IMG/VR virus record: IMGVR_UViG_3300045988_140928 | Span: 1 to 64,000 of that record | Length of the DNA stretch: 64,000 nucleotides | Direction: 5' to 3' (one strand) | Origin: a virus | Shown: one piece after another, positions 19,690-64,000 of the stretch | Numbering within the stretch: position 1 is the first letter of the stretch | Layout: each line of letters starts with the position of its first letter | Notes under the pieces: generated by a model | What the model was told of the DNA's origin: nothing | Database searches by the model: none | The model's input: the letters and a program-made list of their open reading frames with translations, nothing else | Translations under genes and position numbers: made by a program

Positions 19690-20310
19690 TTACTTAACCT
19701 TTCTAGTGGCGTTAATTGCACATACCGGACACTTATGTTTACTAGTCATAAAACTAGCTGGAGTAGCCATCCATACGGTTCCACACTTCTTATGTTTAAA
19801 TGTAACACGTTGATGATAACCTTTGTATTCAGATAAGACTTCAAATTCTTCTCCGTGAGGTAAATCTCTAACCCGTTTCTTAAATTCCTCAGTAGTTAAT
19901 GTTTGCTTCTTAGAGCGGATTTTAATAGCACATACAGGACAACGAGCAGTCCCTACTCCAAAGACGCTAGGAAGAGTCTTAAAGACAGTTCCGCACTTCT
20001 TATGCTTATAACGAATTGGTGTACGATTCTTTGTGTAGTCGTCTAACACTTCATATTCATTATTAGTCAGTTCCTTTACGTATTGTCGATACTCTGCTGG
20101 CGTATAACGTGGACGACCACTGCAATAGGGACAATGAGGTCTTTGATAAAAACTCAGAGGATAAACATATAACACATGACCACATTTATTATGTTTGATA
20201 TGAATTTTAACTATTCCTTTTTGATAAGGATCTAATACCGTATACTCATCACCTACAAGATTATGTAATTCTTGTCGATATTCTTTATCAGTTTTTCTTC
20301 TCATGTTCAA
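19690..20310 (-). CDS. triple Zn-ribbon protein, a nuclease-less member of the HE-like family
   Basis: Three tandem modules of pattern EY..VL..Y....t....HK.CG..f...P..F......CP.C. No FDF...EYDG..H nuclease core. Confidence 0.65.
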   Translation of the reverse strand: MNMRRKTDKEYRQELHNLVGDEYTVLDPYQKGIVKIHIKHNKCGHVLYVYPLSFYQRPHCPYCSGRPRYTPAEYRQYVKELTNNEYEVLDDYTKNRTPIRYKHKKCGTVFKTLPSVFGVGTARCPVCAIKIRSKKQTLTTEEFKKRVRDLPHGEEFEVLSEYKGYHQRVTFKHKKCGTVWMATPASFMTSKHKCPVCAINATRKVK

Positions 20311-20399: not shown

Positions 20400-20888
20400 T
20401 TAATCTGTAAAGTAAAACATTGGTAACATTTTCTTAGCTTTATGATGTTTATTATACTTAATACACCCCCGTCTTAGGTCTTCCAGCTCCTCAATAGCTC
20501 CATTGTTATTATTAAATTCTCGTATAGCGTCTGAATAGGTCTCACTGTTTTCTTCACTATAGTCTAGGATAGTTTCTAATTCGTCCTGCTTACTGTACAG
20601 AAAGTCCATTAAATAAGACGTAAGCCCTAGATAATTATTAATAATATTAGTAACTTCTTTTCCCATAGGGGCGTTATTACTCTGGATAAAATTAAACAAA
20701 TCATCAAGAAATGGTGGGTAATGATAAGCTAAGCTTACTCTATCTGCGGAGTCCAGCTTTTTTGTACTCCAGGTATCTTCTCCTGTAAGACTAAAGATTT
20801 TCTCTCTGTCATTATCCAGACCTAAGTAAATTTCTGGTTGTGTTCTAAGGTCTATAAAACCTTTAGCTAAAGATAAAACTAACCCCAT
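20400..20888 (-). CDS. hypothetical protein
   Basis: 162 aa. Its start is 2 nt after the stop of the HE/Mom-like ORF, so the two are probably co-transcribed. Confidence 0.55.
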   Translation of the reverse strand: MGLVLSLAKGFIDLRTQPEIYLGLDNDREKIFSLTGEDTWSTKKLDSADRVSLAYHYPPFLDDLFNFIQSNNAPMGKEVTNIINNYLGLTSYLMDFLYSKQDELETILDYSEENSETYSDAIREFNNNNGAIEELEDLRRGCIKYNKHHKAKKMLPMFYFTD

Positions 20889-20890
20889 TA

Positions 20891-22747
20891 TTATACCTCT
20901 TTATCTTTCTTTAAATGTTTAGCTAATTTAGATTCTTTCCAAATCTTACCAGTTTTTCGATCTCTAATCAAGCGTTCTTCTGTATCACCTACTGAGTAAT
21001 GAACACTATCTTGTTTAGGGTAAGGTTCAATATCAAACTTTAAGGTCTTACGAGCTTGCTTCTTAAATATTTTTGAACCTAAGAACATGATATAACGATA
21101 CTTGATAGGACTAATTATCATATATCTATAATAATGCCCTTTCTCCCACACGCCACCATGCTTACCATAACCATTCCAAGAATATTCACGATGTTTAGTA
21201 GTTCCACAGTATAAAAAGTTAGTAGCTTGATAAATTGCTCCTGTATGGTGCATACCTTGATCAGCAAAAGAAATAATAAACCAATTACCATCTTGTTCTT
21301 GCTTTAACTGTCTTAAAGTCCACGAAACAAACTTAGACGTAATATTCTTTAAGTTTTGACTTACCTCGTCTTTAATGTATAGTCGGGATAATTCTAGGGT
21401 ATTGTCTTTAGTGGCTAAAGGCGAAATAGACTGAGCAAGACTAATTCTAGGTCTGGTATATGTTACCATACCTGCTAAACTTCCCCTATAATATAAACCA
21501 TAGCAATAAGAAGTAGTAACTCTACGATGTAAATAATGGTATTTAATCATTAGTTCGTCTAACTCACTGCTATCTACCTTTCTAAATTCAACGTCACTAG
21601 ACTTATCTACTAAAGGTAAAAGATAATAATCTAACGTATCCTTAATATTTTCATTATATTTAATCCTAATTAAGTTAATACCATTTTTCTTACAATAGTT
21701 ATCTTTCATCCTATCGTGTTTCTTTTGCAGTTCATAGCGCTCTTTACCTCCGAATAAGTCAATAGGCTTAAAGTGCTGTTGACCATCATACTCAACAGCA
21801 GTATTGAATTGAGGTAGCCAAAAATCAAAATGAAGATTTTTCTTATCTATTAAATCTGGAATTAAATAACCATAAGAGTAACTAAGCTTATGGTTGGCTA
21901 AATAATTCATAATTGCCTGTTCACCATTAGAAGAACCACAATTAGGACACAAACCCCTATTAGCGCTAAGTTGTCCCCATGTAGTCTTAAACACAGTACC
22001 ACATGCACTATGTCTTACATAAATAGGGCTTTGATTATTTTTATAATCACCACTTACGTATGTATAACGACCGTCAGCAACCTTTGAAATACGTTGTTTA
22101 ACTTCGTCTAAGGATAATCTACATCTGTCACCTGTTGCCTTATTAGCACAAAATTTACAACGATAACCATGTATAAAGCTATAGTCTCTAACCCAATATT
22201 CATTTCCACATTCTCTATGTAGTAAATGTAACCACAATCCTTCCTTTTTAGTTCTCTTAGTTCCTAATAATTCATATTTGCCTTTTCCTAAATCTTTAAC
22301 CTCTTTAATTACTTTATTAGGTGTTTTAGGAGCATTTCCTGCACAATTAGGACACCCTTTGCCTTTTAATAGATTAACTGGAAGGGGCGTCCATTCACCC
22401 TTTGAGCCATAGCCACATACAAGACACTTCGCTTTTGTCTTCTTAAAAATACCATGTATAGGCTCAAGTAAAATAATATCATCATTAGGGCGAACTTTAT
22501 GTAGTCTATTCTTAAACTCTTCGTCTGTTAACATACGACTATTAGATCTTTTCCTCATACTACAGTGCTTGCATTTTGCTTTACCTCTAAAAATATTATC
22601 GGGAATTAAAGTTCCAGTAGTACCACAAACTAAATGTTTATACTTAACAGGTGTCTTCATATCCTTATAAGGAGGATAAAAAACATAACTAGAACCTAGC
22701 ATACGTTGTGCCCTATAATTAAATTCGTCAAAAGTTAATTTTTTCAA
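20891..22747 (-). CDS. fusion protein: 4 Zn-ribbon modules + Vsr/DUF559-like PD-(D/E)XK nuclease + Mom-like (GNAT-fold) domain
   Basis: 618 aa. Nuclease core HFDFWLP..AVEYDGQQHF..RMKDNYC..INLIRIKY. C-terminal motifs YHYLHR, LELSRLYI, ISFADQGMHHTGAIYQATNFLYCGTT. TTG start with RBS GAAGGGG. Confidence 0.7.
   Translation of the reverse strand: MKKLTFDEFNYRAQRMLGSSYVFYPPYKDMKTPVKYKHLVCGTTGTLIPDNIFRGKAKCKHCSMRKRSNSRMLTDEEFKNRLHKVRPNDDIILLEPIHGIFKKTKAKCLVCGYGSKGEWTPLPVNLLKGKGCPNCAGNAPKTPNKVIKEVKDLGKGKYELLGTKRTKKEGLWLHLLHRECGNEYWVRDYSFIHGYRCKFCANKATGDRCRLSLDEVKQRISKVADGRYTYVSGDYKNNQSPIYVRHSACGTVFKTTWGQLSANRGLCPNCGSSNGEQAIMNYLANHKLSYSYGYLIPDLIDKKNLHFDFWLPQFNTAVEYDGQQHFKPIDLFGGKERYELQKKHDRMKDNYCKKNGINLIRIKYNENIKDTLDYYLLPLVDKSSDVEFRKVDSSELDELMIKYHYLHRRVTTSYCYGLYYRGSLAGMVTYTRPRISLAQSISPLATKDNTLELSRLYIKDEVSQNLKNITSKFVSWTLRQLKQEQDGNWFIISFADQGMHHTGAIYQATNFLYCGTTKHREYSWNGYGKHGGVWEKGHYYRYMIISPIKYRYIMFLGSKIFKKQARKTLKFDIEPYPKQDSVHYSVGDTEERLIRDRKTGKIWKESKLAKHLKKDKEV
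20950..21600 (-). repeat. dispersed direct repeat, about 650 bp (Mom-like segment, copy 1)
   Basis: About 85-90% nucleotide identity by eye to 54310..54955. An example shared stretch is gggtaaggttcaatatcaaactttaaggtcttacgagcttgcttcttaaa. Confidence 0.8.
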
Positions 22748-22770: not shown

Positions 22771-22799
22771 ATTATACCTTCTATTAATTCATTATTCAA
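22771..22799 (-). promoter_or_regulatory. consensus sigma-A promoter TTGAAT-17-TATAAT for the HE/Mom-like gene
   Basis: -35 at 22794..22799, -10 at 22771..22776, spacer 17 nt. Confidence 0.65.
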
Positions 22800-22834: not shown

Positions 22835-22877
22835 ATAACGTATACCGTTAGTCGAATTAAACTAAAGTATACGTTAT
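22835..22877 (-). terminator. terminator hairpin after the split tube-like gene
   Basis: Perfect 11-bp stem ATAACGTATAC/GTATACGTTAT with a 21-nt loop, followed by UUUUAUAU. Confidence 0.55.
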
Positions 22878-22918: not shown

Positions 22919-23213
22919 TTATGATTGTGAACCCGCTGAAGAGCTGAGGTATAGAAACTCAATAGATTCAGACACAATTTGCGAAGCTCTATAGCTGGTA
23001 TTGTAACTGGAGGCACTACATCCATAAAACGCTTCGGCCACCATTTTAGTAACACTATCCATTACAGAAATAGTTAAAACATCAGCTTGCAAAATGTCTT
23101 CTCCCAGATGGGCTATATCCATTTGTTTAGAAGCAAGGTTATCTCGCACCATACGAAATCTTTCTAGTGTAAGAGAACCCGTATATTTGAGGTATACGTG
23201 TTCACGTGGCATA
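22919..23213 (-). CDS. tail-tube-like protein, exon 3
   Basis: The frame stays open when joined to exon 2 (AT + T gives Ile, then MPREHVYLKYTGSLTLER...). The spliced product is 144 aa. Confidence 0.65.
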
Positions 23214-23455
23214 CATTATATTAACTACTTATTTCCAAGTAGATTAGATTATATCTTCCTCTTTATAAGAGGTTCTACATTACCTTAACTTAATAAGAAC
23301 TTAATCGTTAGTCATTTATTTTAGAACGGTTGGTCAACTCTGCCTACTTCTAGGTTTAGTCTTTCTTACTAGCTTATTTAATTCAGTTATTCAGCTTTAC
23401 CCGTTTAGTAGAATTTTTAAATTAACATTACTGTTAATCACCACTATGCTAGTTA
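23214..23455 (-). ncRNA. group I intron, ORF-less (242 nt, IA-like)
   Basis: - P1: CCAU|U with AGUGG, giving a U.G at the splice site
- P2: AUUAAC/GUUAAU
- P3: UUCUAC/GUAGAA
- P8: CCUCUU/AAGAGG
- J8/7-P7: AAGAUAUAAUC
- P9: CUACUU/AAGUAG
- The intron ends in G. Confidence 0.8.
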
Positions 23456-23569
23456 ATGGATCCGATTTCGTATACTCCTTCGGTACCGTAACTTCTGTTA
23501 GCTGTCAAACTTTGAGCACGTGCAATCAAGTGGTTCTTAGCCATGATATAAATTCGGTTACCAGTATTA
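23456..23569 (-). CDS. tail-tube-like protein, exon 2
   Basis: 114 nt encoding (V)NTGNRIYIMAKNHLIARAQSLTANRSYGTEGVYEIGS(I), bounded by an intron-terminal G upstream and a U.G splice site downstream. Confidence 0.65.
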
Positions 23570-23828
23570 CAAAAATTATATTTATATTTTAATATAAAAT
23601 TAGACTATATCTTACTCTTTAATAAGAGTCTTCCTCATTACACCATAAGGCTCTTATCTAATAAATTATTAGAACTTTAGTCGTTAGTCTTTTATTTTAG
23701 AACGGTTGGTCAACTCTACCCCTAGTAGATTACAGGGCTTAGTCTTTCTTACTAGCTTATTCTCTTTTATTACTACTATTTATTTAGCTATACCCGTTTA
23801 GAGGAAATTTTGAAACAGCTAATACTTA
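23570..23828 (-). ncRNA. group I intron, ORF-less (259 nt, IA-like)
   Basis: - P1: AACGGU with GCUGUU, giving a U.G at the splice site
- P3: UUCCUC/GAGGAA
- P7: GACUA/UAGUC
- P7.1: UCUAAUAA/UUAUUAGA
- P8: ACUCUU/AAGAGU
- S element: AAGAUAUAGUC
- The intron ends in G. Confidence 0.8.
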
Positions 23829-23930: not shown

Positions 23931-23964
23931 CAAACAAAAAGAGGTGTCTAATTTAATAGGCACC
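23931..23964 (-). terminator. terminator hairpin after HE-like gene
   Basis: GGUGCCUA/UAGACACC (one mismatch) followed by CUUUUUGUUUG. It overlaps the TAG stop. Confidence 0.5.
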
Positions 23965-24965
23965 TAATTAATATACTTTTCTAATACTCTTTTTATCTCT
24001 CTATAGGTAGTTACAGTATATGGAATTCTAATTAATTTAATATTATGCTCTCTACAATATTGATCTTTTTTTCTATCATTATGTACCTGCTTTCTAAAAG
24101 CTTCATCTCCACCAAAATAACTTCGAGGTTTAAAATGCTGAATACCATCATACTCTATAGCCGAATTAGATTCAGGAAGATAAAAGTCAAAATGCAGTTT
24201 ATTGGGAAGTATATATCCATAAATAAAACTAATATTAGTACGAACTAACCAACTCTTTACTAGAGATTCTCCTCTTGATATATGCTCACATCTACATCTA
24301 TTACCACGTAAAAAATGGTCAGGTCTAACACTATACACACGACCACAAGTCATATGCTTAATTTTAATAGGATTACTACTACCTGTATATTTTCCAATAA
24401 CTTTGTACTCCCCATCCGTAAGATCATAGACTTCCTTCTTAAATTGACTTGTAGACTTTCTCCTTTTACTAGCTAAAGCCTTTCTTTGTTTAATCTGTGC
24501 AATAGACAAACCATTAATTAAATGCTTCTCCTGCTCACGTTTTAATTGATACCTGTGATTCTCTCTTTCTAAACTTTCACAGATCGAACAATGAATCCCA
24601 TTCTGCTTAAAAGACTTAGGTGTGATTAAATAAGAGTGGTTACAACTACGATGAATCAAGCGCACCTTAACCGTATTACCTTGATAAGGAGTAAGTGGAT
24701 CTAAGTACCATTGATTATTAGTTTTAATTTTAATCAACTGCTCAAATGTTTGAGTTGCTCTATGATGATTCGCTGAACAGTAGGGACAGCGTTTGCCTGC
24801 TAGAAAATTATGAGGCGAAACTGAATAAACCCTACCACACTTATTATGCTCCATTAATAACTTGGTATGAGCATTAACATATGTATTAGACTTTACTGTG
24901 TACTCGTTACCTACTAAATTGTAAACTTCCTGCTTAAATTCTTCTATTGTTTTTCTTCTACTCAT
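23964..24965 (-). CDS. free-standing HE-like protein (Zn-ribbon modules + Vsr/DUF559-like nuclease)
   Basis: 333 aa. Core HFDFYLPESNSAIEYDGIQHF..RKKDQYC..IKLIRIPY. RBS TAGGAGG. Confidence 0.7.
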   Translation of the reverse strand: MSRRKTIEEFKQEVYNLVGNEYTVKSNTYVNAHTKLLMEHNKCGRVYSVSPHNFLAGKRCPYCSANHHRATQTFEQLIKIKTNNQWYLDPLTPYQGNTVKVRLIHRSCNHSYLITPKSFKQNGIHCSICESLERENHRYQLKREQEKHLINGLSIAQIKQRKALASKRRKSTSQFKKEVYDLTDGEYKVIGKYTGSSNPIKIKHMTCGRVYSVRPDHFLRGNRCRCEHISRGESLVKSWLVRTNISFIYGYILPNKLHFDFYLPESNSAIEYDGIQHFKPRSYFGGDEAFRKQVHNDRKKDQYCREHNIKLIRIPYTVTTYREIKRVLEKYIN

Positions 24966-41313: not shown

Positions 41314-42459
41314 TCAGTCTGCATAATGAGTCTGAACATGGTTTTGAGCCTCGATCTTATCTAGGGTTTCCGATACCAATTTGCTAATACTTGATAAAGT
41401 ATCGTAAGTGTATTTTATCCTTAAAAGATTAATATTATTATCTAAACAAAATTGATCTTTTATTCTATCGTGTTTAACTAAGTCTGTAGAATAAAATTTA
41501 GAACCTCTATCAAAATGCTGTTTACCATCATATTCTATACATAAATTATAGTCTGGTAAATAAAAATCAAAGGGAAGCCTACGCTTATCTCTACACCCGT
41601 CAAACTTAAATTCTCTACAATACTCGATACTTAACTTATCCAATACCTTAGCAACCATAGAATTACCGTGACTAGATCCATGTTGAAAACACCAAGGGCA
41701 ACGGTGACCACTACCTATAAAATCATAAGGAATCATACTAAAACTCTTCCTACATATTTTATGCTTAAAAACAACTTTAGTCTTAGCATTTTTATATTTA
41801 CTCAATACTGTATAGTCACCATCAGTTAAGTTACATACAGTCTCTTCAAATTCTTGCTGTGTCCTTCTATGCTTTCCAAAACATCGAGGGCATCTTTCTC
41901 CTCCTAAGAAAGCAGTAGGACTAACCATATACACATTCCCACAAGAAAAATGTTTAACCTTGACCTTTGTATGTGAATTTTTATATACACTTAATAATTT
42001 ATAATCATCTTTTGCAACATAATAGAAGTCATGTTCAAACTGCTTAGGTGTTTTTCTAACTCCCCCTTTGCATCGAGGACATCTAGCACCCCGCAAAAAA
42101 GCACTAGGTGATACCTCATATTCATTCCCACACTTATTATGTTTCATCAAAATTTTAGTATTACTACCTACATATTCACCTAAAATAGAATATTCATTTC
42201 CTACTAAATTATATACCCTATCTCTAAATTCATCTGTAGTAAGTCTACACTTGATTCCTTTTTCTTTATCTGAGCAATAAAGACAAGTAGCTCCCCTATA
42301 AATATTACTAGGAAACATTAAGTTAATATGACCACATTTTAAATGCTTAACCCTAACTCTCGTAGTTGAGTTAACATACTTATCCAAAATAGCGTAATCG
42401 GAACCTAAAGCTCTAGTTGCCCTCTGAAGAAATTCTTCATTAGTTAATTTCCTAGACAT
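41314..42459 (-). CDS. free-standing HE-like protein (4 Zn-ribbon modules + Vsr/DUF559-like nuclease)
   Basis: 381 aa. Core LPFDFYLPDYNLCIEYDGKQHF..RIKDQFC..INLLRIKY. The C-terminus IEAQNHVQTHYAD duplicates the sheath C-terminus. Confidence 0.7.
   Translation of the reverse strand: MSRKLTNEEFLQRATRALGSDYAILDKYVNSTTRVRVKHLKCGHINLMFPSNIYRGATCLYCSDKEKGIKCRLTTDEFRDRVYNLVGNEYSILGEYVGSNTKILMKHNKCGNEYEVSPSAFLRGARCPRCKGGVRKTPKQFEHDFYYVAKDDYKLLSVYKNSHTKVKVKHFSCGNVYMVSPTAFLGGERCPRCFGKHRRTQQEFEETVCNLTDGDYTVLSKYKNAKTKVVFKHKICRKSFSMIPYDFIGSGHRCPWCFQHGSSHGNSMVAKVLDKLSIEYCREFKFDGCRDKRRLPFDFYLPDYNLCIEYDGKQHFDRGSKFYSTDLVKHDRIKDQFCLDNNINLLRIKYTYDTLSSISKLVSETLDKIEAQNHVQTHYAD
41317..41355 (-). repeat. direct repeat B (copy of the sheath gene 3' end)
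   Basis: ATCGAGGCTCAAAACCATGTTCAGACTCATTATGCAGAC compared with 42576..42614. The differences are mostly synonymous. Confidence 0.7.
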
Positions 42460-47540: not shown

Positions 47541-48638
47541 TTATAAAACAGCCTTTAAGAACTTCTTAATACCTTGGGGTGTATTAATTTTATAAGGAAT
47601 TCTAATTAAATAAATACCATGTGACTGACAATACCAGTCCTTTATGTGGTCACGTAACTTAGCCTCTCTAAAGTCATCTACTGTTCGCTGAAAATGATTT
47701 CTTTGAAAATGCTGTATACCATCGTATTCAATAGCAACCCCTATCTTGGGTAACCAAAAATCAAAAGGTAGTGTTCTTTTATATCTACACTGCTCAAATC
47801 TCTTTTGTATTTCATAAGCTATCCCCATCTTATCTAATACAGACTTAATATATTTCTCTCCAGTAGACTCATTACAATAAGGGCAACCAGTATTATTCTT
47901 AAGCAACCCAGTAGGTTGTGCTATAAATGTATGACCACAGATATTATGCTTAAACAATAGACGCTTTTGAGGTTTATAATCTTCTACTAAAGTATATTCA
48001 CCATGATAAATTTTGTTTAACTTATAATTATATTCGTCCTTAGTATATACATGATAAGTCTGGCACCTAGGACAACCCTTTAAATAATAAAAAGAATGGG
48101 GAGTTATCATCCATACATAGCCACATCTATTACACTGACACCTTATTCTTACTTCGTTACCTTGATAAGAATCCAAAAACTTAAACTGCCCATTATTTTT
48201 ACTTTCAACTCTCCTATAAAAATCATCTGAGGGGACTGATACTGCATGATTACAATAGGGACAACCAGTACCCCTAAAAAGATTATGAGCAATCGGATGA
48301 AAGATACGTCCACATTTTAGACACTTAACATCTAACCGTTCGTTAGCAAAAGTATACTTACTTAATACTACATACCTTCCATGATTAACTTTAGCAATCT
48401 TCTTATTAAAGTCTTCCTGTGTATAGGTCTGTTTCAAAACTCTACTTACTAACCCACACTTAGGGCAACGTTGTCTCCGTAAAAATGAATTAGGTGTCAT
48501 ATAAAATACATTACCACAGTCTATATGATAAAAAGCAACCTTAATCTTACTATTTTTATATGTAGTTAATGGAATAAACTCTTCACCTACTAAATTCTGA
48601 ACTTCCTCAGTAAATTCTTCATTAGTTTTTCTTCTCAT
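47541..48638 (-). CDS. free-standing HE-like protein (Zn-ribbon modules + Vsr/DUF559-like nuclease)
   Basis: The start is set at MRRKTNEEF. Core LPFDFWLPKIGVAIEYDGIQHF..KLRDHIKDWYC..IYLIRIPY. Confidence 0.7.
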   Translation of the reverse strand: MRRKTNEEFTEEVQNLVGEEFIPLTTYKNSKIKVAFYHIDCGNVFYMTPNSFLRRQRCPKCGLVSRVLKQTYTQEDFNKKIAKVNHGRYVVLSKYTFANERLDVKCLKCGRIFHPIAHNLFRGTGCPYCNHAVSVPSDDFYRRVESKNNGQFKFLDSYQGNEVRIRCQCNRCGYVWMITPHSFYYLKGCPRCQTYHVYTKDEYNYKLNKIYHGEYTLVEDYKPQKRLLFKHNICGHTFIAQPTGLLKNNTGCPYCNESTGEKYIKSVLDKMGIAYEIQKRFEQCRYKRTLPFDFWLPKIGVAIEYDGIQHFQRNHFQRTVDDFREAKLRDHIKDWYCQSHGIYLIRIPYKINTPQGIKKFLKAVL

Positions 48639-48699
48639 AACTTCCATACCTTTCAAATATTTCGATATAACTAAAATAAATAGGAATAATCCCATTTAT

Positions 48700-49753: not shown

Positions 49754-51994
49754 CTAATTAAATTTAATAATAGGACCATCAACTTGATACAATTGCTTAA
49801 CCAACTTTGGGGTAAACTCAGTTTCATTATTCTCAATACAGAACTTATACCAAGGTTCAGCTCCATAATGCCATGAGGTCTTTTCTCTACCTTTATTATA
49901 CTGATCTAAAGCTTGGCGCAACTCTTTTGCCTTTAAGTAAAAAGGTGATTTCCACTTTAATAATTTGTTCTGACCATAAAGAACTAATCCTTCTCGTAAA
50001 GGATATTTTTCATTATAATCTTTAATCATTTCCTCTAGTTCAGCTTTATTCTTAGCAACGCCAATCTTAGTTTCGTCATTAATAACTTGCATTAATTTAG
50101 CACGGGCTGGATTATCAGCTTGTAATAATGAGTCTACTACCTTCCCTTGTGTATTATTAGTAATTACTGCTAAAGGAATTGCAGTCTTCTCTGTATACAA
50201 CTCAATATGAGGATTGTTAATTGGATCTATGATTTCAAAAACAACAGTCGTATTCTGATTAGCAAGATCAGAAAAATACTCATTCTTAAGAAATTCCCAA
50301 TACGTTTGGTGACGTGTATTAGGGAAAGGAATATCTTTTAAAACCTGTTCCCCAAACAAAGAATAAGTATAGTCACCGGCTTTTGAATAACATTTAACCT
50401 GTTTAAATTTTTTATCATAGAAAGTATATACAGGAAAACCATTCCACTTACGGGCTACCTCTACTGGATATTTAATAGTGCCTAAACTGTCTTGGGAACC
50501 CCGCTCATCAATAGCAAAGAATTTATCAAACCCACGTCCAATAATTTGATTATCACGAGAAAACAACCCACGTGCTTTAATTCGTTCATTGTTAAACTTA
50601 TTCTTAATAAAGATTTTAGAGTTAAAGTTATTAGCAACAATATCATGATCTAAAGAGGACTGTTTAATATCATGGTCATCAGACAACTTTTCAATTAGAG
50701 ACTTAGTATCAATCCGATCAATTTCATGTGGAATAATCTTATCTTTAGTTAAAGTAACCCAACGAAACTTATCTTCTGCTGTTAAATTAATACTATTATT
50801 TAGTACAAAATGATTAAATTGATTACGATGACCATGAATATTGAATGATAAAGGGTCTTTATAAGTACTCCATATTTTATCAACATCTCGATCATAAGGA
50901 TTATGTGTCTCATTATCTGGAACACCCATTACAAACTCTTCTTCATTAGCTAAGCCTAAAAAATTCGCAGAAGGCTCTAAACCAGCGTGAGTAATATAAA
51001 AACGCTTACGATCCCAGATAAAATAAAGATAGTCTAAAAATTTGTCTTCCATCTTATCAATTCGGCGATCAAGTTCTTTTTCTCCATACTTACTAAGTAA
51101 AACATCTAAAGTTTGGTGACCAAACTGACCAGTCTTTCTTCTTTGATTACGCCAAATCTCCCATGACAATTCATGATTTCCTCGCAAAAAGAATAAGTTA
51201 CTACCCGACAACTCACTAGTAATAAAATCAAATACCTTATCAGAAGCTGAACCACGATCTAAATAATCACCAACAAAAACATAAGCAGTTCCCGACTCAT
51301 GATTATCGAATACCTTTTCTAAAGCACTCATATCACCATGCACATCACCAATTATTTGAATCTTTTTAAACCGCTTATCAAAATCCAAAGGGCTAATATC
51401 TTGATCTAATCCATTATAAATAATACCGAATATATCGTTGTCATTAGACCCAACACTTAGAGGGGGATAGACCTCGGCAGATCTAGGTATGTTTCCACCA
51501 TTATCTAAATAACGATCAACAAACTTCTTAATAGTAGATATTTCAACTCTCTTATAAAAGCTTCTCTTATTATTATAATTACTTAATTGAGCAATTACTT
51601 GATCATACCAATCCTCACCGTACTTATGCTTGCAACGCTTAATCAGATCAGCCATAAAATCAATTACTATAACTTTATAATGATATTTCTTTACTAATTT
51701 ATTAATAGGTGACCAAGCTTTTTTGTATAACATAGTAGAGTCAAATACAGTTGTCATTCCATGCTTCATTCTATTTTCTAGCATCTCATAAGCAGTATTA
51801 AATACTTCTTTATTATATGATTGAGAAATAGATTGATCTAATCCATCTTGACCATTAATGGCAATTGTCTCTGGACTAGCATAAAGCATTCTAATATTAT
51901 CAACCTCAATCGTATAAGGTCCTAAATCATTTTGTTTAATCCAATATGACTTTCCTGAACCGGGTGCCCCTAAAGTAACAATTAATTTTCTCAT
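49754..51994 (-). CDS. Pnkp-like RNA repair protein: P-loop kinase + metallophosphoesterase + ligase/nucleotidyltransferase domain
   Basis: - Kinase: GAPGSGKS.
- Phosphoesterase: GDVHGD, GDYLDRG, GNHE, HGH.
- Ligase: KWNG (motif I), EGLVLY (IV), LLKWKS (V).
- Start ATG at 51992..51994 after GGGAGG. Confidence 0.7.
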   Translation of the reverse strand: MRKLIVTLGAPGSGKSYWIKQNDLGPYTIEVDNIRMLYASPETIAINGQDGLDQSISQSYNKEVFNTAYEMLENRMKHGMTTVFDSTMLYKKAWSPINKLVKKYHYKVIVIDFMADLIKRCKHKYGEDWYDQVIAQLSNYNNKRSFYKRVEISTIKKFVDRYLDNGGNIPRSAEVYPPLSVGSNDNDIFGIIYNGLDQDISPLDFDKRFKKIQIIGDVHGDMSALEKVFDNHESGTAYVFVGDYLDRGSASDKVFDFITSELSGSNLFFLRGNHELSWEIWRNQRRKTGQFGHQTLDVLLSKYGEKELDRRIDKMEDKFLDYLYFIWDRKRFYITHAGLEPSANFLGLANEEEFVMGVPDNETHNPYDRDVDKIWSTYKDPLSFNIHGHRNQFNHFVLNNSINLTAEDKFRWVTLTKDKIIPHEIDRIDTKSLIEKLSDDHDIKQSSLDHDIVANNFNSKIFIKNKFNNERIKARGLFSRDNQIIGRGFDKFFAIDERGSQDSLGTIKYPVEVARKWNGFPVYTFYDKKFKQVKCYSKAGDYTYSLFGEQVLKDIPFPNTRHQTYWEFLKNEYFSDLANQNTTVVFEIIDPINNPHIELYTEKTAIPLAVITNNTQGKVVDSLLQADNPARAKLMQVINDETKIGVAKNKAELEEMIKDYNEKYPLREGLVLYGQNKLLKWKSPFYLKAKELRQALDQYNKGREKTSWHYGAEPWYKFCIENNETEFTPKLVKQLYQVDGPIIKFN

Positions 51995-51995
51995 T

Positions 51996-52721
51996 TCATA
52001 ACCTCCCATCTACAATAGCAAAAGGGTCAATTAAAGACGTAGGCAAGTCATTAGTTATACCATCTCCAATATAATAGCCAATAAAGTCGTCAACTGGAGT
52101 CACGTCTTTTGTATAGTCTGGTCTAGTAGCTAATAATTCGACATGACGAGGATTATTACTCTCTACTAACCGATGTTTTACATAGTTACTAATAGGATAA
52201 ATTCGATAGAGTAAATCGGTTCTAACTTGTCCTAGAGTTAAGAAATTATCAACCCAGAAATTCTTCTGCTTTTTAGTATGCTTATCGTTAGAAAGTAAAT
52301 CCTCTTGTAATTCTCTAAAAGTCCAAAGACCAGTTTCACGACCCTTTAGCTCTTCAATCAAAAATCCAAAGAATTGGTCTGCTAAATAACCTTCGGGATC
52401 AGCAATCTTAGAATTACGGTCTGGATAGAGAGTTTCCTTATAATTCTTTTCGGGACTATAAAGACGAGTAATAGTCTCAGCGTCATAAGTATGGTATTTA
52501 TGAACATTAACCCGATCTAAATAAACCTTAGGGTAAACACCAATAAAGCCCCGTTTATAAGCACGAGACATACAAATATTACAGAGCTTTTCATCTTTAT
52601 ATTCCCGTACATCTTTTACATCTGGATTAGCATTATAGTTTTCACGACACAAAGAATGATTATGATCCTCTGGATCAACTATGTGCCATTTCTTTTGTAT
52701 ACCTAATCGAAAAATTTTCAT
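51996..52721 (-). CDS. hypothetical protein, translationally coupled to the Pnkp-like gene
   Basis: 241 aa. ATGA-type overlaps at both ends. Confidence 0.55.
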   Translation of the reverse strand: MKIFRLGIQKKWHIVDPEDHNHSLCRENYNANPDVKDVREYKDEKLCNICMSRAYKRGFIGVYPKVYLDRVNVHKYHTYDAETITRLYSPEKNYKETLYPDRNSKIADPEGYLADQFFGFLIEELKGRETGLWTFRELQEDLLSNDKHTKKQKNFWVDNFLTLGQVRTDLLYRIYPISNYVKHRLVESNNPRHVELLATRPDYTKDVTPVDDFIGYYIGDGITNDLPTSLIDPFAIVDGRL

Positions 52722-53751: not shown

Positions 53752-56115
53752 CTAACTAATTAAGTATGTAGCTAAAGGTTGGTAAGCAGTCTTATAATGC
53801 TTAACTATATCCTTAGGACTAGGAATATCAATTGTATGGCCTTTAACCTCTCTACGGTTAACATCAATGGCCTTATGAATAGAAGAACGACTAGCACCTA
53901 CAATCTTTCTAACTTTAGTCATTCCCTCTACCCAGTTACCATCAACAATAAAGTCATGATTATACTTAGTACTCTTCTTAGCTTTTTCTACTAATTTTTT
54001 AGCAACCTCTGAGGTGTAATCATCTGGTCTACAAAAGACAAATCCACCAAGAGATCCTTTTTTATCCTCTAAACAATGCTTAATGTTACGTTCACCTACA
54101 CCTAAAATTTCTGCACATGACCTAATAGACTCAAATTGGAATACTTGTAAAGTCTTAGTACTAATAGCATAGACAGGAGCAAAATGCTTATTAACTTTTT
54201 TAACAACCTTAGGCTTAATAGGTTTAGCTACTTCCTCATTATCACCATTCCAGTCATAATTAGGAAATGCTTTAAGCAATTCAGTCTCTGTATAAACTTT
54301 ATTTTCTTGACGATCGCGGATTAAACGTTCTTCTGTATCGCCTACTGAGTAATGAATACTGTCTTGCTTAGGGTAAGGTTCAATATCAAACTTTAAGGTC
54401 TTACGAGCTTGCTTCTTAAAGGTTTTTGAACCTAAGAACATAATGTAACGATACTTAATTGAACGTAAAATAAAGAAACGGTAATGATGTCCTTTAACCC
54501 ATTTACCACCTTTCTTATCTGGCCCATTATAGCAGAAAATACCAGAATCTGTAGTTCCACAGTATAAGAAATTAGTAGCTTGATAGATTGCTCCAGTATG
54601 GTGCATTCCTTGATCAGCAAAAGAGATAATAAACCAATTGCCTTCTTGTTCTTTCTTTAACTGTCTTAAAGTCCATGAAACAAACCTAGAGGTAATATTC
54701 TTTAAGTTTTGACTTACTTCGTCTTTAATGTATAGTCGGGATAATTCTAGGGTGTTATCTTTATTGGCTAAAGGTGAAATTGAGAAAGCTAAGGATTTGC
54801 GAACGTGAGTATATGTAACCATTCCTACTAGTTGATTTTGGTAATACATTCCATAAGCATACTTACAAGCTACTACCCGGTGCAGGTAATGGTACTTAAC
54901 CATTAATTCATGTAATTCACTACTATCAACTTTCCTAAAGCTAACATCACTAAATTCATCTACTTTATTCATAGTTAAATCTAACCCCCTGCTTTTTAAA
55001 TAATTCATTATTTGTTCTTCTGTACTTTCAGTATAAGGTATTCTGATAAGTTCAATATTATGATCTTTACAATATTTATCCTTTAAATTATCTCTATACT
55101 GCCTATTTTTATAGCTATCTCGCTTATCAAACATTCTATTAGGCTTATAATGTTGTTCACCGTCATATTCTATGCAAAGGTTGTAATCTGGTAAATAAAA
55201 GTCAAAAGGTAATTTACGATTACTATGTGGATTTATACAATCCTCAAATCGTTTTTGAGGAATTGACTTAACCCCTCTTTTATTTAATATTCGTTCAACC
55301 ATTAATTCACCCTTAGAACGATTACAATAGGGACAACGCTCACCCCCAAGAAAGCTATAAGGGGTCATTTTAAATACTCTATTACATTTATTATGCCTAA
55401 TTAATATCTTGGTTTTACTATTTTTATATTTACCTAAAACAGTATATTCTTTATCTACTTGTTGATATACTTCCCGTTTAAATTGACTATCACTCTTTTT
55501 AGCGTTGCCATAACAATATGGGCATCTCTGACCCATTAAGAATTTAGGAGGTTTTACTTGATATACTTTTCCACATTTTAAGTGTTTAATAGTAACGTCT
55601 GTTCTAGCATTAACATAAGGAGTTATTAATTGATACTCTCCTCTATTTTCCCTCTTAACTTTATCTTCAAATTCAAGCTTACTCTTAATATTACGTACCC
55701 TACCACCCCTCTTATAACGACAAGCTGGGCATCTCTGACCTACGGTTAAGAATAAATAAGCAGACATCTTAAAAATATTACCACAATCATTATGTCTAAA
55801 AGTAAGCTTACTATCAGCATTAACATATGTATCACTTAAAAGAGTATAGTGGTTACCAACCTGCTCTCTAACTTCTTTAAGAATTTGACTATAGGTTTTC
55901 TTCTCATGGTGGTTTGACTCACAAGTAGGGCATCTAGTGCCTCTTAAAAAGTTGTTAGGAACTACTTCCCACTCAGTGTTACACTTATTATGTTTCATTA
56001 ATATTTTAGTTTTACTATTCTTATATTCACCTAAAACAGTGTATTCGTTACCTACTAAACCATATACGTCTTGCTTAAACTCTTTAGTTGTTTTTCTTCT
56101 AGTAGACCTTACCAT
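53752..56115 (-). CDS. fusion protein: Zn-ribbon modules + Vsr/DUF559-like nuclease + Mom-like domain + two NUMOD-like HTH modules
   Basis: Start ATG at 56113..56115 after AAGGAGG. Motifs: LPFDFYLPDYNLCIEYDGEQHY; YHYLHR..ISFADQGMHHTGAIYQATNFLYCGTT; C-terminal FESIRSCAEILGVGERNIKHCL and GMTKVRKIVGASRSSIHKAI. Confidence 0.7.
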   Translation of the reverse strand: MVRSTRRKTTKEFKQDVYGLVGNEYTVLGEYKNSKTKILMKHNKCNTEWEVVPNNFLRGTRCPTCESNHHEKKTYSQILKEVREQVGNHYTLLSDTYVNADSKLTFRHNDCGNIFKMSAYLFLTVGQRCPACRYKRGGRVRNIKSKLEFEDKVKRENRGEYQLITPYVNARTDVTIKHLKCGKVYQVKPPKFLMGQRCPYCYGNAKKSDSQFKREVYQQVDKEYTVLGKYKNSKTKILIRHNKCNRVFKMTPYSFLGGERCPYCNRSKGELMVERILNKRGVKSIPQKRFEDCINPHSNRKLPFDFYLPDYNLCIEYDGEQHYKPNRMFDKRDSYKNRQYRDNLKDKYCKDHNIELIRIPYTESTEEQIMNYLKSRGLDLTMNKVDEFSDVSFRKVDSSELHELMVKYHYLHRVVACKYAYGMYYQNQLVGMVTYTHVRKSLAFSISPLANKDNTLELSRLYIKDEVSQNLKNITSRFVSWTLRQLKKEQEGNWFIISFADQGMHHTGAIYQATNFLYCGTTDSGIFCYNGPDKKGGKWVKGHHYRFFILRSIKYRYIMFLGSKTFKKQARKTLKFDIEPYPKQDSIHYSVGDTEERLIRDRQENKVYTETELLKAFPNYDWNGDNEEVAKPIKPKVVKKVNKHFAPVYAISTKTLQVFQFESIRSCAEILGVGERNIKHCLEDKKGSLGGFVFCRPDDYTSEVAKKLVEKAKKSTKYNHDFIVDGNWVEGMTKVRKIVGASRSSIHKAIDVNRREVKGHTIDIPSPKDIVKHYKTAYQPLATYLIS
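54310..54955 (-). repeat. dispersed direct repeat, about 650 bp (Mom-like segment, copy 2)
   Basis: Matches 20950..21600. Confidence 0.8.
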
Positions 56116-56198
56116 TACTACTACCTCCTTACAAGTATTACTATACACCATAGTAAGTTAAATGTAAAGATGGTATATCAAATAATACAAATCAATAT

Positions 56199-62911: not shown

Positions 62912-64000
62912 CAATTATATTAACTACTTATTTCTAAGTAGATTAGACTATATCTTTATCCTACTAGGATATTCCCTATATAGTCGTTAGACCTGTTTTA
63001 ACTTGGTACGGGATTAGCCTGCCTTACTTAAATTATAAGGTTTAGCTTCTCTTATCACCTTATTACGGTAAGCCCGTTTAGGGGATATTTATTTAACAGA
63101 TATTACTATCTGTGACCGCTTAAATGCTTAGTTAAAATTGATTTTATTTGTTTCTTAGTCGTAATAGTATATGGAATACGAATTAAAGTAATATCATTAT
63201 TTTTACAATAGGTGTCCTTAAGATAATCTCGATATACTAAACTTTTATAATTATCTATACCACCCCAAAAACTAATAGGCTTATAATGTTGTTCTCCATC
63301 ATATTCAATTGCTATCTTTTTATTAGGAAACCAAAAGTCAAAATGAAGATTATTCTTATACTTTAAATCTGGAATAATATACCCATAAGTAAAATCATTT
63401 CCCTCAGAATAATGGAAATCTTGGGTTAAAGACGATAATATTAATCTTTCACCGTAACTTGATCGTTCATGTAAAGCACAATAAGGGCAACCTGTATGGT
63501 TATATTGAATATCACCATACCTAGCTTCATACACAGTATTGCATACTAAATGCTTAATCTTAATATGTTGGCGATTGCCTTTATACTCATCATCTTTAGT
63601 TAGCACTACATATTCACTACCTAGAATATCTTTAATATTCTCCCTTACCTGAGATAAAGGAGTCCTTTGATTAATTCCAATCTTAGGTGAACGATCTACA
63701 TAGGAACATTTTAGGCATCCATGACCCCTCAAAAAATCAGCAGGACGTGTCATATAAATATTACCACATCTATTATGCTTAACTTTTACTAAAGTATCTG
63801 AATTTTTATATATAGATAATACGATATACTCATTACCCCACTGTTTCTTAACTCTACTTAAAAATTCGCTATTAGTCATAGTTCTTAATTTAACTCTGTG
63901 TTCCTTAGCACATTCAGGACAACGCTGACCATTCAAAAAGCTATTAGGATTCATCATAAAATGATGATTGCATTTAAGATGAATAAACTCTACCTTAGTT
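62912..64000 (-). mobile_element. group I intron (3' part) carrying an HE-like ORF, inserted in the terminase gene
   Basis: The core lies downstream of the ORF: CUAAACGGG (P3/P4 region), P7 GACUAUA/UAUAGUC, P8 AUCCU/AGGAU, S element AAGAUAUAGUC (62946..62956), P9 CUACUU/AAGUAG, terminal G at 62912. Confidence 0.8.
63106..64000 (-). CDS. intron-encoded HE-like protein (Zn-ribbon modules + Vsr/DUF559-like nuclease), 5'-truncated by the window edge
   Basis: The frame stays open to position 64000 (..LKVEFIHLKCNHHFMMNPNSFLNGQRCPEC). Core HFDFWFPNKKIAIEYDGEQHY..RDYLKDTYC..ITLIRIPY. Confidence 0.7.
   Translation of the reverse strand, partial: TKVEFIHLKCNHHFMMNPNSFLNGQRCPECAKEHRVKLRTMTNSEFLSRVKKQWGNEYIVLSIYKNSDTLVKVKHNRCGNIYMTRPADFLRGHGCLKCSYVDRSPKIGINQRTPLSQVRENIKDILGSEYVVLTKDDEYKGNRQHIKIKHLVCNTVYEARYGDIQYNHTGCPYCALHERSSYGERLILSSLTQDFHYSEGNDFTYGYIIPDLKYKNNLHFDFWFPNKKIAIEYDGEQHYKPISFWGGIDNYKSLVYRDYLKDTYCKNNDITLIRIPYTITTKKQIKSILTKHLSGHR

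Follow-up and report, generated by a model that had tools for sequence, protein, structure and literature searches.

An open reading frame (ORF) of 618 amino acids (aa) was analyzed in a window of 64,000 nucleotides (nt), positions 1 to 64,000 of the virus record IMGVR_UViG_3300045988_140928, and all coordinates given for its copies refer to this window. The ORF, here called copy 1, is encoded on the minus strand (22747 to 20891) and starts with TTG. It joins, in this order, four treble-clef Zn ribbons, a predicted Hef-type (Vsr-like, EDxHD) nuclease and a complete Mom-family GNAT domain. The window belongs to the genome of an uncultured member of the Herelleviridae; the major head protein encoded in it shares 65% identity with that of Lactobacillus phage LfeInf and 56% with those of Lactobacillus plantarum phages. 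A second fused ORF of 799 aa, copy 2 (53752-56151, minus strand), lies directly downstream of the major head protein gene. Mobile-gene behavior, with allelic replacement, sharp breakpoints and conserved flanks, was seen at both the copy 1 and the copy 2 loci. We read copy 1 as a mobile endonuclease carrying Mom as anti-restriction cargo, a small homing endonuclease gene (HEG) island, and give this reading an even chance.

The 618-aa ORF is present as the earlier note had described it, with three parts joined without a stop codon. An identical protein is encoded on the ENA contig ERZ505483 NODE_622, and 615-aa fused ORFs, 91% identical to copy 1 and with the same TTG start, were found on four IMG/VR contigs. 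The same fused ORF is thus found on five independent contigs from different samples, which makes the resequencing of the junction that had been suggested unnecessary. A database search returned about 35 protein clusters, all from metagenomes, with the Zn-nuclease-Mom layout, down to 40% identity. Neither an internal ATG nor a Shine-Dalgarno (SD) sequence was found at the nuclease-Mom junction of copy 1. Because the junction has no internal start codon or ribosome-binding site, the copy 1 Mom can be made only as a fusion.

The substitution rates were compared between copy 1 and its orthologues on the related contigs L017-L020, at synonymous distances (dS) of 0.6-0.97. The ratio of nonsynonymous to synonymous rates (dN/dS) was 0.06-0.08 in both the Zn array and the nuclease and 0.03-0.05 in Mom, so that strong purifying selection acts on each of the three modules. 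Between the L017 and L019 orthologues, dS is 0.05 in the nuclease and 0.47 in the Zn array, a contrast of about tenfold within one gene pair, which indicates recent recombination inside the gene. An assembly or frameshift artefact joining two separate genes was considered, since close relatives at the copy 2 locus carry the halves as separate, overlapping genes. The five contigs, the roughly 35 clusters with the same architecture, the junction free of any ATG or SD remnant and the selection spanning the entire ORF all speak against such an artefact, and this explanation is effectively refuted. In the AlphaFold2 (AF2) model of copy 1, built with 63 homologues, the mean predicted local distance difference test score (pLDDT) was 89.2 and the predicted template modeling (TM) score was 0.45. 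The domains are each predicted to fold confidently, in a loose relative arrangement.

The Mom domain occupies residues 383-600 (20948-21601, minus strand). Its assignment to the Mom family, made in the earlier note, is confirmed by sequence profile and structure searches that all agree. Pfam PF25680 (Mom) matched residues 387-578 over profile positions 3-202 of 202, with an E-value (E) of 1.4e-30 and 106.9 bits against a cut-off of 27.1, and phrog_1384, a "Mom-like DNA modification protein", matched with E 4e-42. When the copy 1 Mom was compared with PDB sequences by phmmer, the only match was Mu Mom (8bv8, E 1e-9). Mu Mom was also the best PDB match of the AF2 model in Foldseek (E 1.6e-10, TM 0.73), ahead of generic GNATs. 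H404, Y405, R455, S471, D496 and Y506 of copy 1 align with H58, Y59, R111, S124, D149 and Y159 of Mu Mom, respectively.

Several features differ from Mu Mom, to which the identity is about 21%. Mu Mom is a standalone protein of 231 aa, whereas the copy 1 domain is fused to an endonuclease and carries an extra C-terminal extension of about 40 aa. The end of this extension, past the PYPK terminus of Mu Mom in the alignment, is formed by residues 601-618 and the stop codon (20891-20947); an extension beyond PYPK is also present in standalone members of the subfamily. The residue at Mu R151 is Gly498 in copy 1, and Gly is likewise found in copy 2 and in the standalone P0090 and P0103. The helix-turn-helix (HTH)-like insertion (Mu residues ~175-209) is about 15 residues shorter in copy 1 and is modeled as beta-rich, and W181 is not conserved. 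In Mu Mom, R111, S124 and D149 are needed for activity, and R151 and the HTH-like insertion are essential (PMC13219725). The shorter insertion and the R151G change were also considered as adaptations to fusion; this was ruled out, as both are shared by standalone subfamily members.

The chemistry of Mom has been described as the transfer of glycine from Gly-tRNA to the N6 of adenine in double-stranded DNA (Silva et al. 2026, PMC13219725). In that study, the profile for homologue mining was made from "sequences only containing Mom domains", and fusions are not mentioned. GNAT substrates are not predictable from the fold alone, and Mu Mom is a tight dimer whose dimerization is required (PMC13219725). 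The dimerization of the homing endonuclease I-Bth0305I appears to be linked to catalytic activity (PMC3239194). These points, together with the Gly at position 151 throughout the subfamily, would suit a Mom-like domain without a role on DNA, which would either use another acceptor (a protein, a tRNA or a small molecule) or dimerize the nucleases for a double-strand break. We regard this as very improbable. All six aligned residues are kept, with the lowest dN/dS of the three modules, which exceeds a structural need; moreover, the nuclease-only paralogues function without Mom, and standalone members of the subfamily exist.

The Zn-ribbon part covers residues 1-268 (21944-22747, minus strand) and is presumed to be a DNA-recognition array. 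The four tandem modules reported in the earlier note were found as [H/C]xxC...CxxC motifs at residues 38-62, 108-135, 177-200 and 246-270. The AF2 pLDDT of the array is mostly above 85, and phrog_559 and phrog_681 match it. CapR and DUF4379 Pfam matches were found in the Zn arrays of paralogues.

The nuclease core covers residues 269-382 (21602-21943, minus strand). Among 53 nuclease-only relatives, conservation reaches at least 90% at seven of its residues (E276, D308, E319, Q324, H325, D345 and K348), all of which are retained in 34 of 34 fused proteins. E276, D308, H325 and D345 fit the composite EDxHD pattern, and from the family description they would correspond to residues of I-Bth0305I. 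Copy 1 matched the "homing endonuclease" family phrog_9084 with E 1.3e-27 and phrog_559 with E 7e-82. By tblastn, it matched I-MsaI, the AR9/PBS1 Hef-like proteins and others with E down to 8e-44. The core had been described as Vsr/DUF559-type; the quoted motifs and a nuclease core are indeed present, but Pfam DUF559 has no match, and Pfam gave only sub-threshold matches to DUF2726, DUF5889 and DUF7255. The AF2 model of residues 205-385 reached a pLDDT of 92.4. Its Foldseek matches were weak only, namely mitoribosomal proteins (E 5.6e-3) and E. coli Vsr (1vsr, E 0.13, probability 0.85), with TnsA and AF1548 lower in the list; 3r3p was absent from the top matches. When PDB sequences were searched with the nuclease module, by sequence and by profile, only Zn-ribbon noise and no related chain came up. 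As the fold search was weak, the Vsr-like assignment draws on the motifs and on the literature, where Taylor et al. 2011 (PMC3239194) count the Hef-type enzymes among the Vsr-like EDxHD homing endonucleases. Judged by its residues, the copy 1 nuclease is better described as Hef-type/EDxHD. It is not intron-encoded, as it is located after the tail-tube stop codon, and copy 2 is located after the capsid gene.

The conserved nuclease residues also bear on whether the nuclease may have ceased to home, so that the Zn ribbons and the nuclease fold would now serve as a domesticated scaffold that binds DNA and delivers or stimulates Mom, compensating for its shortened HTH-like insertion. The loss of about 15 residues and of W181 in a region essential in Mu Mom would fit this, as would P0011, a Zn-Mom protein without a nuclease, and the architecture types C and B, which have only a NUMOD-like tail from an HNH endonuclease. 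However, the invariance of the nuclease residues in 34 of 34 fused proteins and the nuclease dN/dS of 0.06-0.08 argue for a working enzyme, standalone subfamily Moms share the shortened insertion, which is therefore not an adaptation to fusion, and the cassette turnover with sharp breakpoints described below is the kind of outcome that active homing yields. Such a domesticated scaffold is improbable.

The copy 2 locus shows how the parts move. Copy 2 consists of four Zn ribbons and a nuclease (residues 1-394, 54970-56151, minus strand), followed by Mom (residues 401-615) and a NUMOD1/I-HmuI-like tail (residues 631-799); residues 395-799 (53755-54969) are a separate resident gene in relatives, and the ancestral ATG (Met395) is retained. 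In the relatives at this locus, whose capsid proteins are 96-98% identical, the cassette is always present, usually as two genes. In L003-L005 and L008-L011, the stop codon of a 378-aa Zn-nuclease gene overlaps the start codon of the Mom-tail gene (ATGA), with an SD sequence, GAAGGTGG, just upstream. This indicates classic translational coupling of the split genes. A programmed frameshift was set aside for the split forms, since the overlap and the upstream SD sequence are ordinary translational coupling. In L002 and in copy 2 of the window, both halves are in one frame, and the ACTATGA string is still kept. Fused and translationally coupled forms interconvert.

The nucleotide identity along the copy 2 locus is about 92% in the capsid gene, 45-60% in the Zn-nuclease module and 90-97% from the Mom start codon onward, which places the breakpoints at the 3' end of the capsid gene and at the Mom ATG. 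At the protein level, the Zn-nuclease module is 38-65% identical to those of relatives, with saturated dS, between flanks of 88-98%. The Mom-tail part is orthologous whether fused or split, with 88-96% aa identity and dN/dS of 0.06-0.12. The divergent nuclease beside the conserved Mom-tail indicates that the endonuclease is a replaceable cassette and that the Mom-tail is the resident. Whether the two are fused at this locus depends on the endonuclease allele present. Since Mom is equally constrained in the fused and the split forms, fusion is not required for Mom function, which weakens any obligate single-chain mechanism. In relatives, Mom is followed by the tail or by a complete HNH/NUMOD4 endonuclease and the tail; Mom is therefore flanked by remnants of two endonuclease types.

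At the copy 1 locus, identity drops once the tail-tube stop codon is passed and is back at 92% precisely where g162 begins; this 162-aa gene (20400-20888, minus strand) abuts the copy 1 stop codon. Between the same flanks, L015 has an unrelated nuclease-only homing endonuclease (34% identical), and the Mom segment is absent. This indicates that the nuclease and Mom vary as one unit there, and the nuclease-plus-Mom block of copy 1 is a variable cassette between the tail-tube stop codon and the g162 start. The left boundary of the cassette is tail-tube exon 2 (97 aa, 22919-23212, minus strand). In a tree of Mom domains the architectures interleave, with Mom-tail and Mom-HNH-tail proteins nested among Zn-nuclease-Mom-tail proteins.

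Copy 1 would accordingly be a bifunctional protein, in which the frame of a free-standing Hef-type homing endonuclease continues into a complete Mom. In related genomes without the cassette, the nuclease half would cleave at a specific site, which would drive its spread and help it compete when phages co-infect a cell. By analogy with the Mu enzyme, the Mom half would act late in infection and would acylate the N6 of adenines in double-stranded phage DNA from an aminoacyl-tRNA (Gly-tRNA-Gly); the bulky adenine adduct would block host restriction enzymes and allow restriction evasion. Both copies lie just downstream of late structural genes (capsid and tail tube), which fits a post-replicative modification. 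In this model, the insertion point of the endonuclease genes lies directly 5' of mom, with either an ATGA overlap or a continuous frame. Mom would give a selectable benefit and a homology arm, the endonuclease would give mobility, and fusion would lock in co-inheritance and co-expression without being mechanistically required. Mom might also serve self-protection. The subfamily includes standalone Moms as well, which favors the cargo reading; one of them, in L021/L022, is 68% identical to the copy 1 Mom and directly follows a fused copy.

The cargo reading is further supported by the HEG-island concept, because an interchangeable homing endonuclease beside cargo fits the copy 2 breakpoints. 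In HEG islands, the cargo is enclosed by homing endonuclease genes, which can replace one another at a given site and reshuffle their repeated DNA-binding domains, and the cargo provides homology arms (Barth et al. 2023, PMC10448857). The copy 2 locus, with its capsid-HE-Mom-(HNH)-tail arrangement (HE, homing endonuclease) and its breakpoints, matches this description. The difference is that the cargo of HEG islands consists of essential core genes and is not fused, whereas here it is an accessory DNA-modification enzyme, often in frame with the endonuclease.

The distribution of the architecture was analyzed by an exhaustive Mom-domain search, which at E up to 1e-3 returned 1,473 representative clusters, mostly of standalone proteins 200-260 aa long. 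A length of at least 345 aa is reached by about 22 of the best 150 clusters and by about half of the 16 closest. Among the long forms, P0116 is a NUMOD4-HNH_3-NUMOD-like-Mom protein with a complete N-terminal HNH endonuclease, P0036 likewise joins Mom to an HNH endonuclease, and P0162 is a ParB_N-Mom protein; besides P0011, further Zn-ribbon arrays are fused to Mom as well. Several Mom proteins of 410-610 aa (P0183, P0198, P0209, P0220, P0225 and P0246) have extensions without a Pfam assignment. P0082, with 264 member sequences, has the layout Zn-DUF723-REase_MTES_1575-Mom (REase, restriction endonuclease). Matches that span 80% or more of P0082 occur in 116 isolate-phage records, including phages of Tenacibaculum, Vibrio, Salmonella, Klebsiella and Aeromonas and PA5oct-like Pseudomonas phages. 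Among the matches listed, most are annotated as "Hef-like homing endonuclease" or "homing endonuclease". In the three isolate proteins inspected, the annotations name the homing endonuclease only and do not mention the Mom-like domain.

These three proteins, ORF-301 of Tenacibaculum phage PTm5, EST35_0312 of Pseudomonas phage PA5oct and gp53 of Salmonella phage SB28, have the same layout as copy 1, with Zn ribbons, a REase/Vsr-like nuclease and a Mom-like GNAT domain. Their locations are typical of homing endonuclease genes: the PTm5 gene is just downstream of the capsid gene, the PA5oct gene splits the DNA polymerase gene, and the SB28 gene is located between tail genes. Several copies occur per genome, as with copies 1 and 2; PA5oct has five places matching a P0082-type protein. 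Each of the three can be aligned to Mom and retains most of the key residues (R111, S124, D149 and Y159 mostly so), with NH for HY and a shorter C-terminus. The Pfam Mom threshold is passed by PTm5 ORF-301 and P0082 and not by the PA5oct and SB28 proteins. The Mom of the isolate Hef-like proteins is divergent, covering profile positions 3 to ~150 of 202 at 28-31 bits or below threshold and lacking the PYPK C-terminus, in contrast to the canonical, full-length Mom of copy 1 (107 bits). The overall identity of copy 1 to these proteins is about 22-25%. Its alignment with PTm5 ORF-301 is continuous across the nuclease-Mom junction (residues 201-456, E 5e-9), and near-full-length structural relatives are present in BFVD. 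In tblastn, the matches of copy 1 to Lactococcus phage P1048, Bacillus phage PBS1 and Streptococcus phage 94 reach residue 448-456, so that these endonucleases may carry a partial or divergent Mom-like segment, about 70 residues into Mom.

The architecture is therefore not new, although none had been known to the earlier note. In their passage on jumbo-phage Mom domains, Iyer et al. 2021 (PMC7824862) describe fusions to REase-fold nucleases and propose a restriction-modification-like role; together with the isolate "Hef-like" matches, this establishes prior description. Copy 1 belongs to the same nuclease-Mom fusion class, as it has a predicted REase-fold nuclease and Mom in one phage polypeptide, but its host genome is a non-jumbo Herelleviridae of Gram-positive hosts, in contrast to the jumbo phages of Iyer et al. 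2021. Both groups are known from computational prediction alone, and no experimental work on any nuclease-Mom fusion was found in the literature. No isolate-phage record covers at least 80% of the copy 1 protein by tblastn, and a megablast search of the gene against isolate phages gave no match. A search of NCBIfam with copy 1 gave no match either, and the PADLOC defense-system models matched neither copy 1, copy 2 nor g162. What seems to be new here is the evolutionary dynamics in uncultured Herelleviridae, with the interconversion of fused and coupled forms and module swaps, and also the fusion of Mom to HNH and ParB_N modules.

The same survey holds several points that weigh against Mom as mere cargo. 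The fusion is ancient and occurs widely beyond this lineage, with the 116 isolate-phage records and varied loci in the three inspected. The homology of copy 1 and PTm5 ORF-301 is unbroken across the junction. Mom was fused independently to HNH endonucleases (P0116, P0036) and to ParB_N (P0162). Within one genome, copies 1 and 2 have near-identical Mom domains (80%) and very different DNA-binding arrays (30%; the nucleases are 36% identical). Old, repeated fusions and differing arrays hint at real functional cooperation, in targeting or self-protection, and not only at hitch-hiking. In addition, the Gly at R151 and the shorter insertion suggest that the donor substrate, and even the acceptor, could differ from those of Mu Mom, and the nuclease and Mom activities of all fusion members are predicted ones.

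The main rival reading is a single-chain analogue of restriction-modification, which we consider possible but less likely than the cargo reading. The Zn array would be one address for both domains; Mom would mark the phage's own copies of the site, and the nuclease would cut unmarked DNA of the host or of superinfecting phages, with momylation as the basis of self and non-self, like methylation in Type IIG systems. This is the role predicted for Mom-REase fusions in the passage of Iyer et al. 2021 (PMC7824862). The deeply conserved nuclease-to-Mom order with homology across the junction, the separate joining of Mom to HNH and to ParB_N nucleases, the obligately fused state of the copy 1 Mom, the differing arrays beside similar Moms and the purifying selection on every module are all consistent with it. 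At the copy 2 locus, however, the nuclease was swapped for distant paralogues while the Mom-tail remained orthologous and equally constrained, fused or split, and this counts against the analogue because a nuclease and a modifier adapted to each other should be exchanged jointly. The window also has four nuclease-only paralogues that do without Mom, a Mom-less homing endonuclease is found at the copy 1 site in L015, and standalone Moms exist in the subfamily. Homing endonucleases normally escape self-cleavage through an insertion, a nearby intron or a polymorphism that alters the target. A modification targeted for self-protection or restriction evasion, as suggested in the earlier note, is plausible and was already proposed in the same passage of Iyer et al. 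2021 (PMC7824862). The stronger form, in which the Zn array, joined by the NUMOD tail in copy 2, would direct a tRNA-dependent aminoacyl transferase to specific DNA sequences and the momylated own site would separate self from cassette-less competitors, appears doubtful.

Type IIG/IIC enzymes such as MmeI and BcgI combine nuclease, modification and DNA-recognition modules in one polypeptide; they are SAM (S-adenosylmethionine)-dependent methyltransferases and host defense systems. Copy 1 differs from them as a GNAT that would be tRNA-dependent by analogy and as a phage mobile element, and a target recognition shared by both of its activities is only presumed.

The mobile-endonuclease reading was further compared with the known single systems. 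With Mu Mom, copy 1 shares, besides the GNAT fold and the conserved residues, a gene position among late structural genes, suggesting late expression. With the I-Bth0305I/EDxHD family, it shares the composite E...D...H...D pattern and an N-terminal DNA-binding region followed by a C-terminal nuclease; I-Bth0305I is unlike copy 1 in being intron-encoded, in having NUMOD2/HTH modules and not Zn ribbons, and in having no Mom domain (PMC3239194). The nuclease-only Hef-type enzymes (I-MsaI of Staphylococcus phage MSA6, AR9/PBS1, LfeInf and 3-521) have the same Zn array and nuclease core, fall in phrog_559/9084 and are 30-33% identical to copy 1 over residues 1 to ~375; most of them stop soon after the nuclease core and lack a complete Mom. 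Phages of Gram-positive hosts (LP65 Orf128, Staphylococcus Alsa and phiSA_BS1, and Listeria LP-0xx) also encode standalone Moms of this family, as single-domain proteins with no endonuclease attached. LP65 is a related Lactobacillus Herelleviridae phage with a capsid protein 50% identical, and its Orf128 is 35% identical over 96% of the Mom domain with TM 0.87.

To a specialist, the finding is not very surprising; it is of moderate interest as a good system for studying why endonucleases and Mom co-occur. The chemistry of Mom was worked out only in 2026, and nuclease-Mom fusions were noted only in passing. The lineage is a natural experiment in which the same Mom occurs free, translationally coupled, fused, or fused to other endonuclease types, and it can be used to test Mom as mere cargo against self-protection and whether the DNA-binding array re-targets Mom. 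If the targeted form were true, it would be a sequence-targeted hypermodification, a restriction-modification analogue made from a homing endonuclease and a GNAT, re-targetable by module swaps and allowing programmable placement of bulky adenine adducts on DNA. If targeting is not real, it would still be a clear case of a selfish endonuclease stabilized by an anti-restriction cargo gene.

The window contains further Hef-type genes. Two are fused to Mom, four are nuclease-only paralogues and one is a Zn-only remnant. The nuclease-only paralogues, all on the minus strand, are 333 aa (23964-24965), 381 aa (41314-42459), 384 aa (47541-48695) and 283 aa (63106-63957) long, and they end soon after the LIRIPY motif, as had been noted earlier. 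The first is free-standing upstream of tail-tube exon 1; its reading as intron-encoded was ruled out, since exon 1 at ~23595-23452 puts it upstream of the gene. A 206-aa ORF (19690-20310, minus strand) consists solely of Zn-ribbon modules (DUF4379) without a nuclease, and is conserved at the same position in relatives, where it is 204-222 aa long. This ORF may be what is left of an endonuclease, or may encode a DNA-binding protein that evolved from one.

Upstream of copy 1, the promoter reported in the earlier note, TTGAAT-17-TATAAT, is present in a pattern scan at 22771-22799 (minus strand), followed by a GAAGGGG ribosome-binding site and the TTG start. Its status as a promoter of the gene's own is less certain, as such patterns are not above chance: 10 promoter-like sites were found in this AT-rich stretch, compared with 14.1 expected from shuffled sequence. 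Between the tail-tube stop codon and this site lies an AT-rich inverted repeat (22835-22877, minus strand) with 11-nt arms, ATAACGTATAC ... GTATACGTTAT, a 21-nt loop and then a T-rich run. The terminator scan did not call this repeat. On the other side of copy 1, g162 had no PHROG or PADLOC match. It is present in the window and L015 (90% identical), where it comes after the Mom-less homing endonuclease, and cleanly absent from L017-L019. It is thus an indel-polymorphic gene and possibly part of the cassette.

The tail-tube gene (Phi812-type, 22919-23595, minus strand) is split into a 48-aa exon 1 (~23595-23452) and the 97-aa exon 2 (23212-22919) by an intron-like insert of about 240 nt without an ORF (~23213-23451). 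In L015, the tail-tube gene is uninterrupted and lacks the insert. Rfam gave no match in the window at the gathering threshold; sub-threshold group I intron matches near the tail-tube gene were found at 23225-23332 (E 0.03) and 23581-23736 (E 0.002). As a speculation, the copy 1 endonuclease might target the intron-less tail-tube allele ("collaborative homing").

Other in-frame events were seen in related genomes. In L005 (461-3124), and also in L010 and L011, the portal gene is in three pieces with residues 475-498 duplicated. A 358-aa Hef-type endonuclease ORF of L005 runs in frame into the last 55 residues of the portal, which indicates that in-frame run-on into a downstream gene is a habit of these elements. 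In L021/L022 (387-5261), the tail-tube exons are followed by a fused HE-Mom of 684 aa, the standalone Mom of 229 aa, an 80-aa ORF and a D12-class adenine methyltransferase.

A 751-aa kinase-phosphatase-ligase protein is encoded at 49754-52009 (minus strand), with matches to phrog_8238 RNA ligase, polynucleotide kinase and phosphoesterase, and it looks like an RNA repair enzyme from these matches. It may be of interest, as Mom depends on charged tRNA. Among the compared copy 2 loci, it was seen only in the window; the corresponding stretch of L002-L005 has ORFs of 97 and 306 aa.

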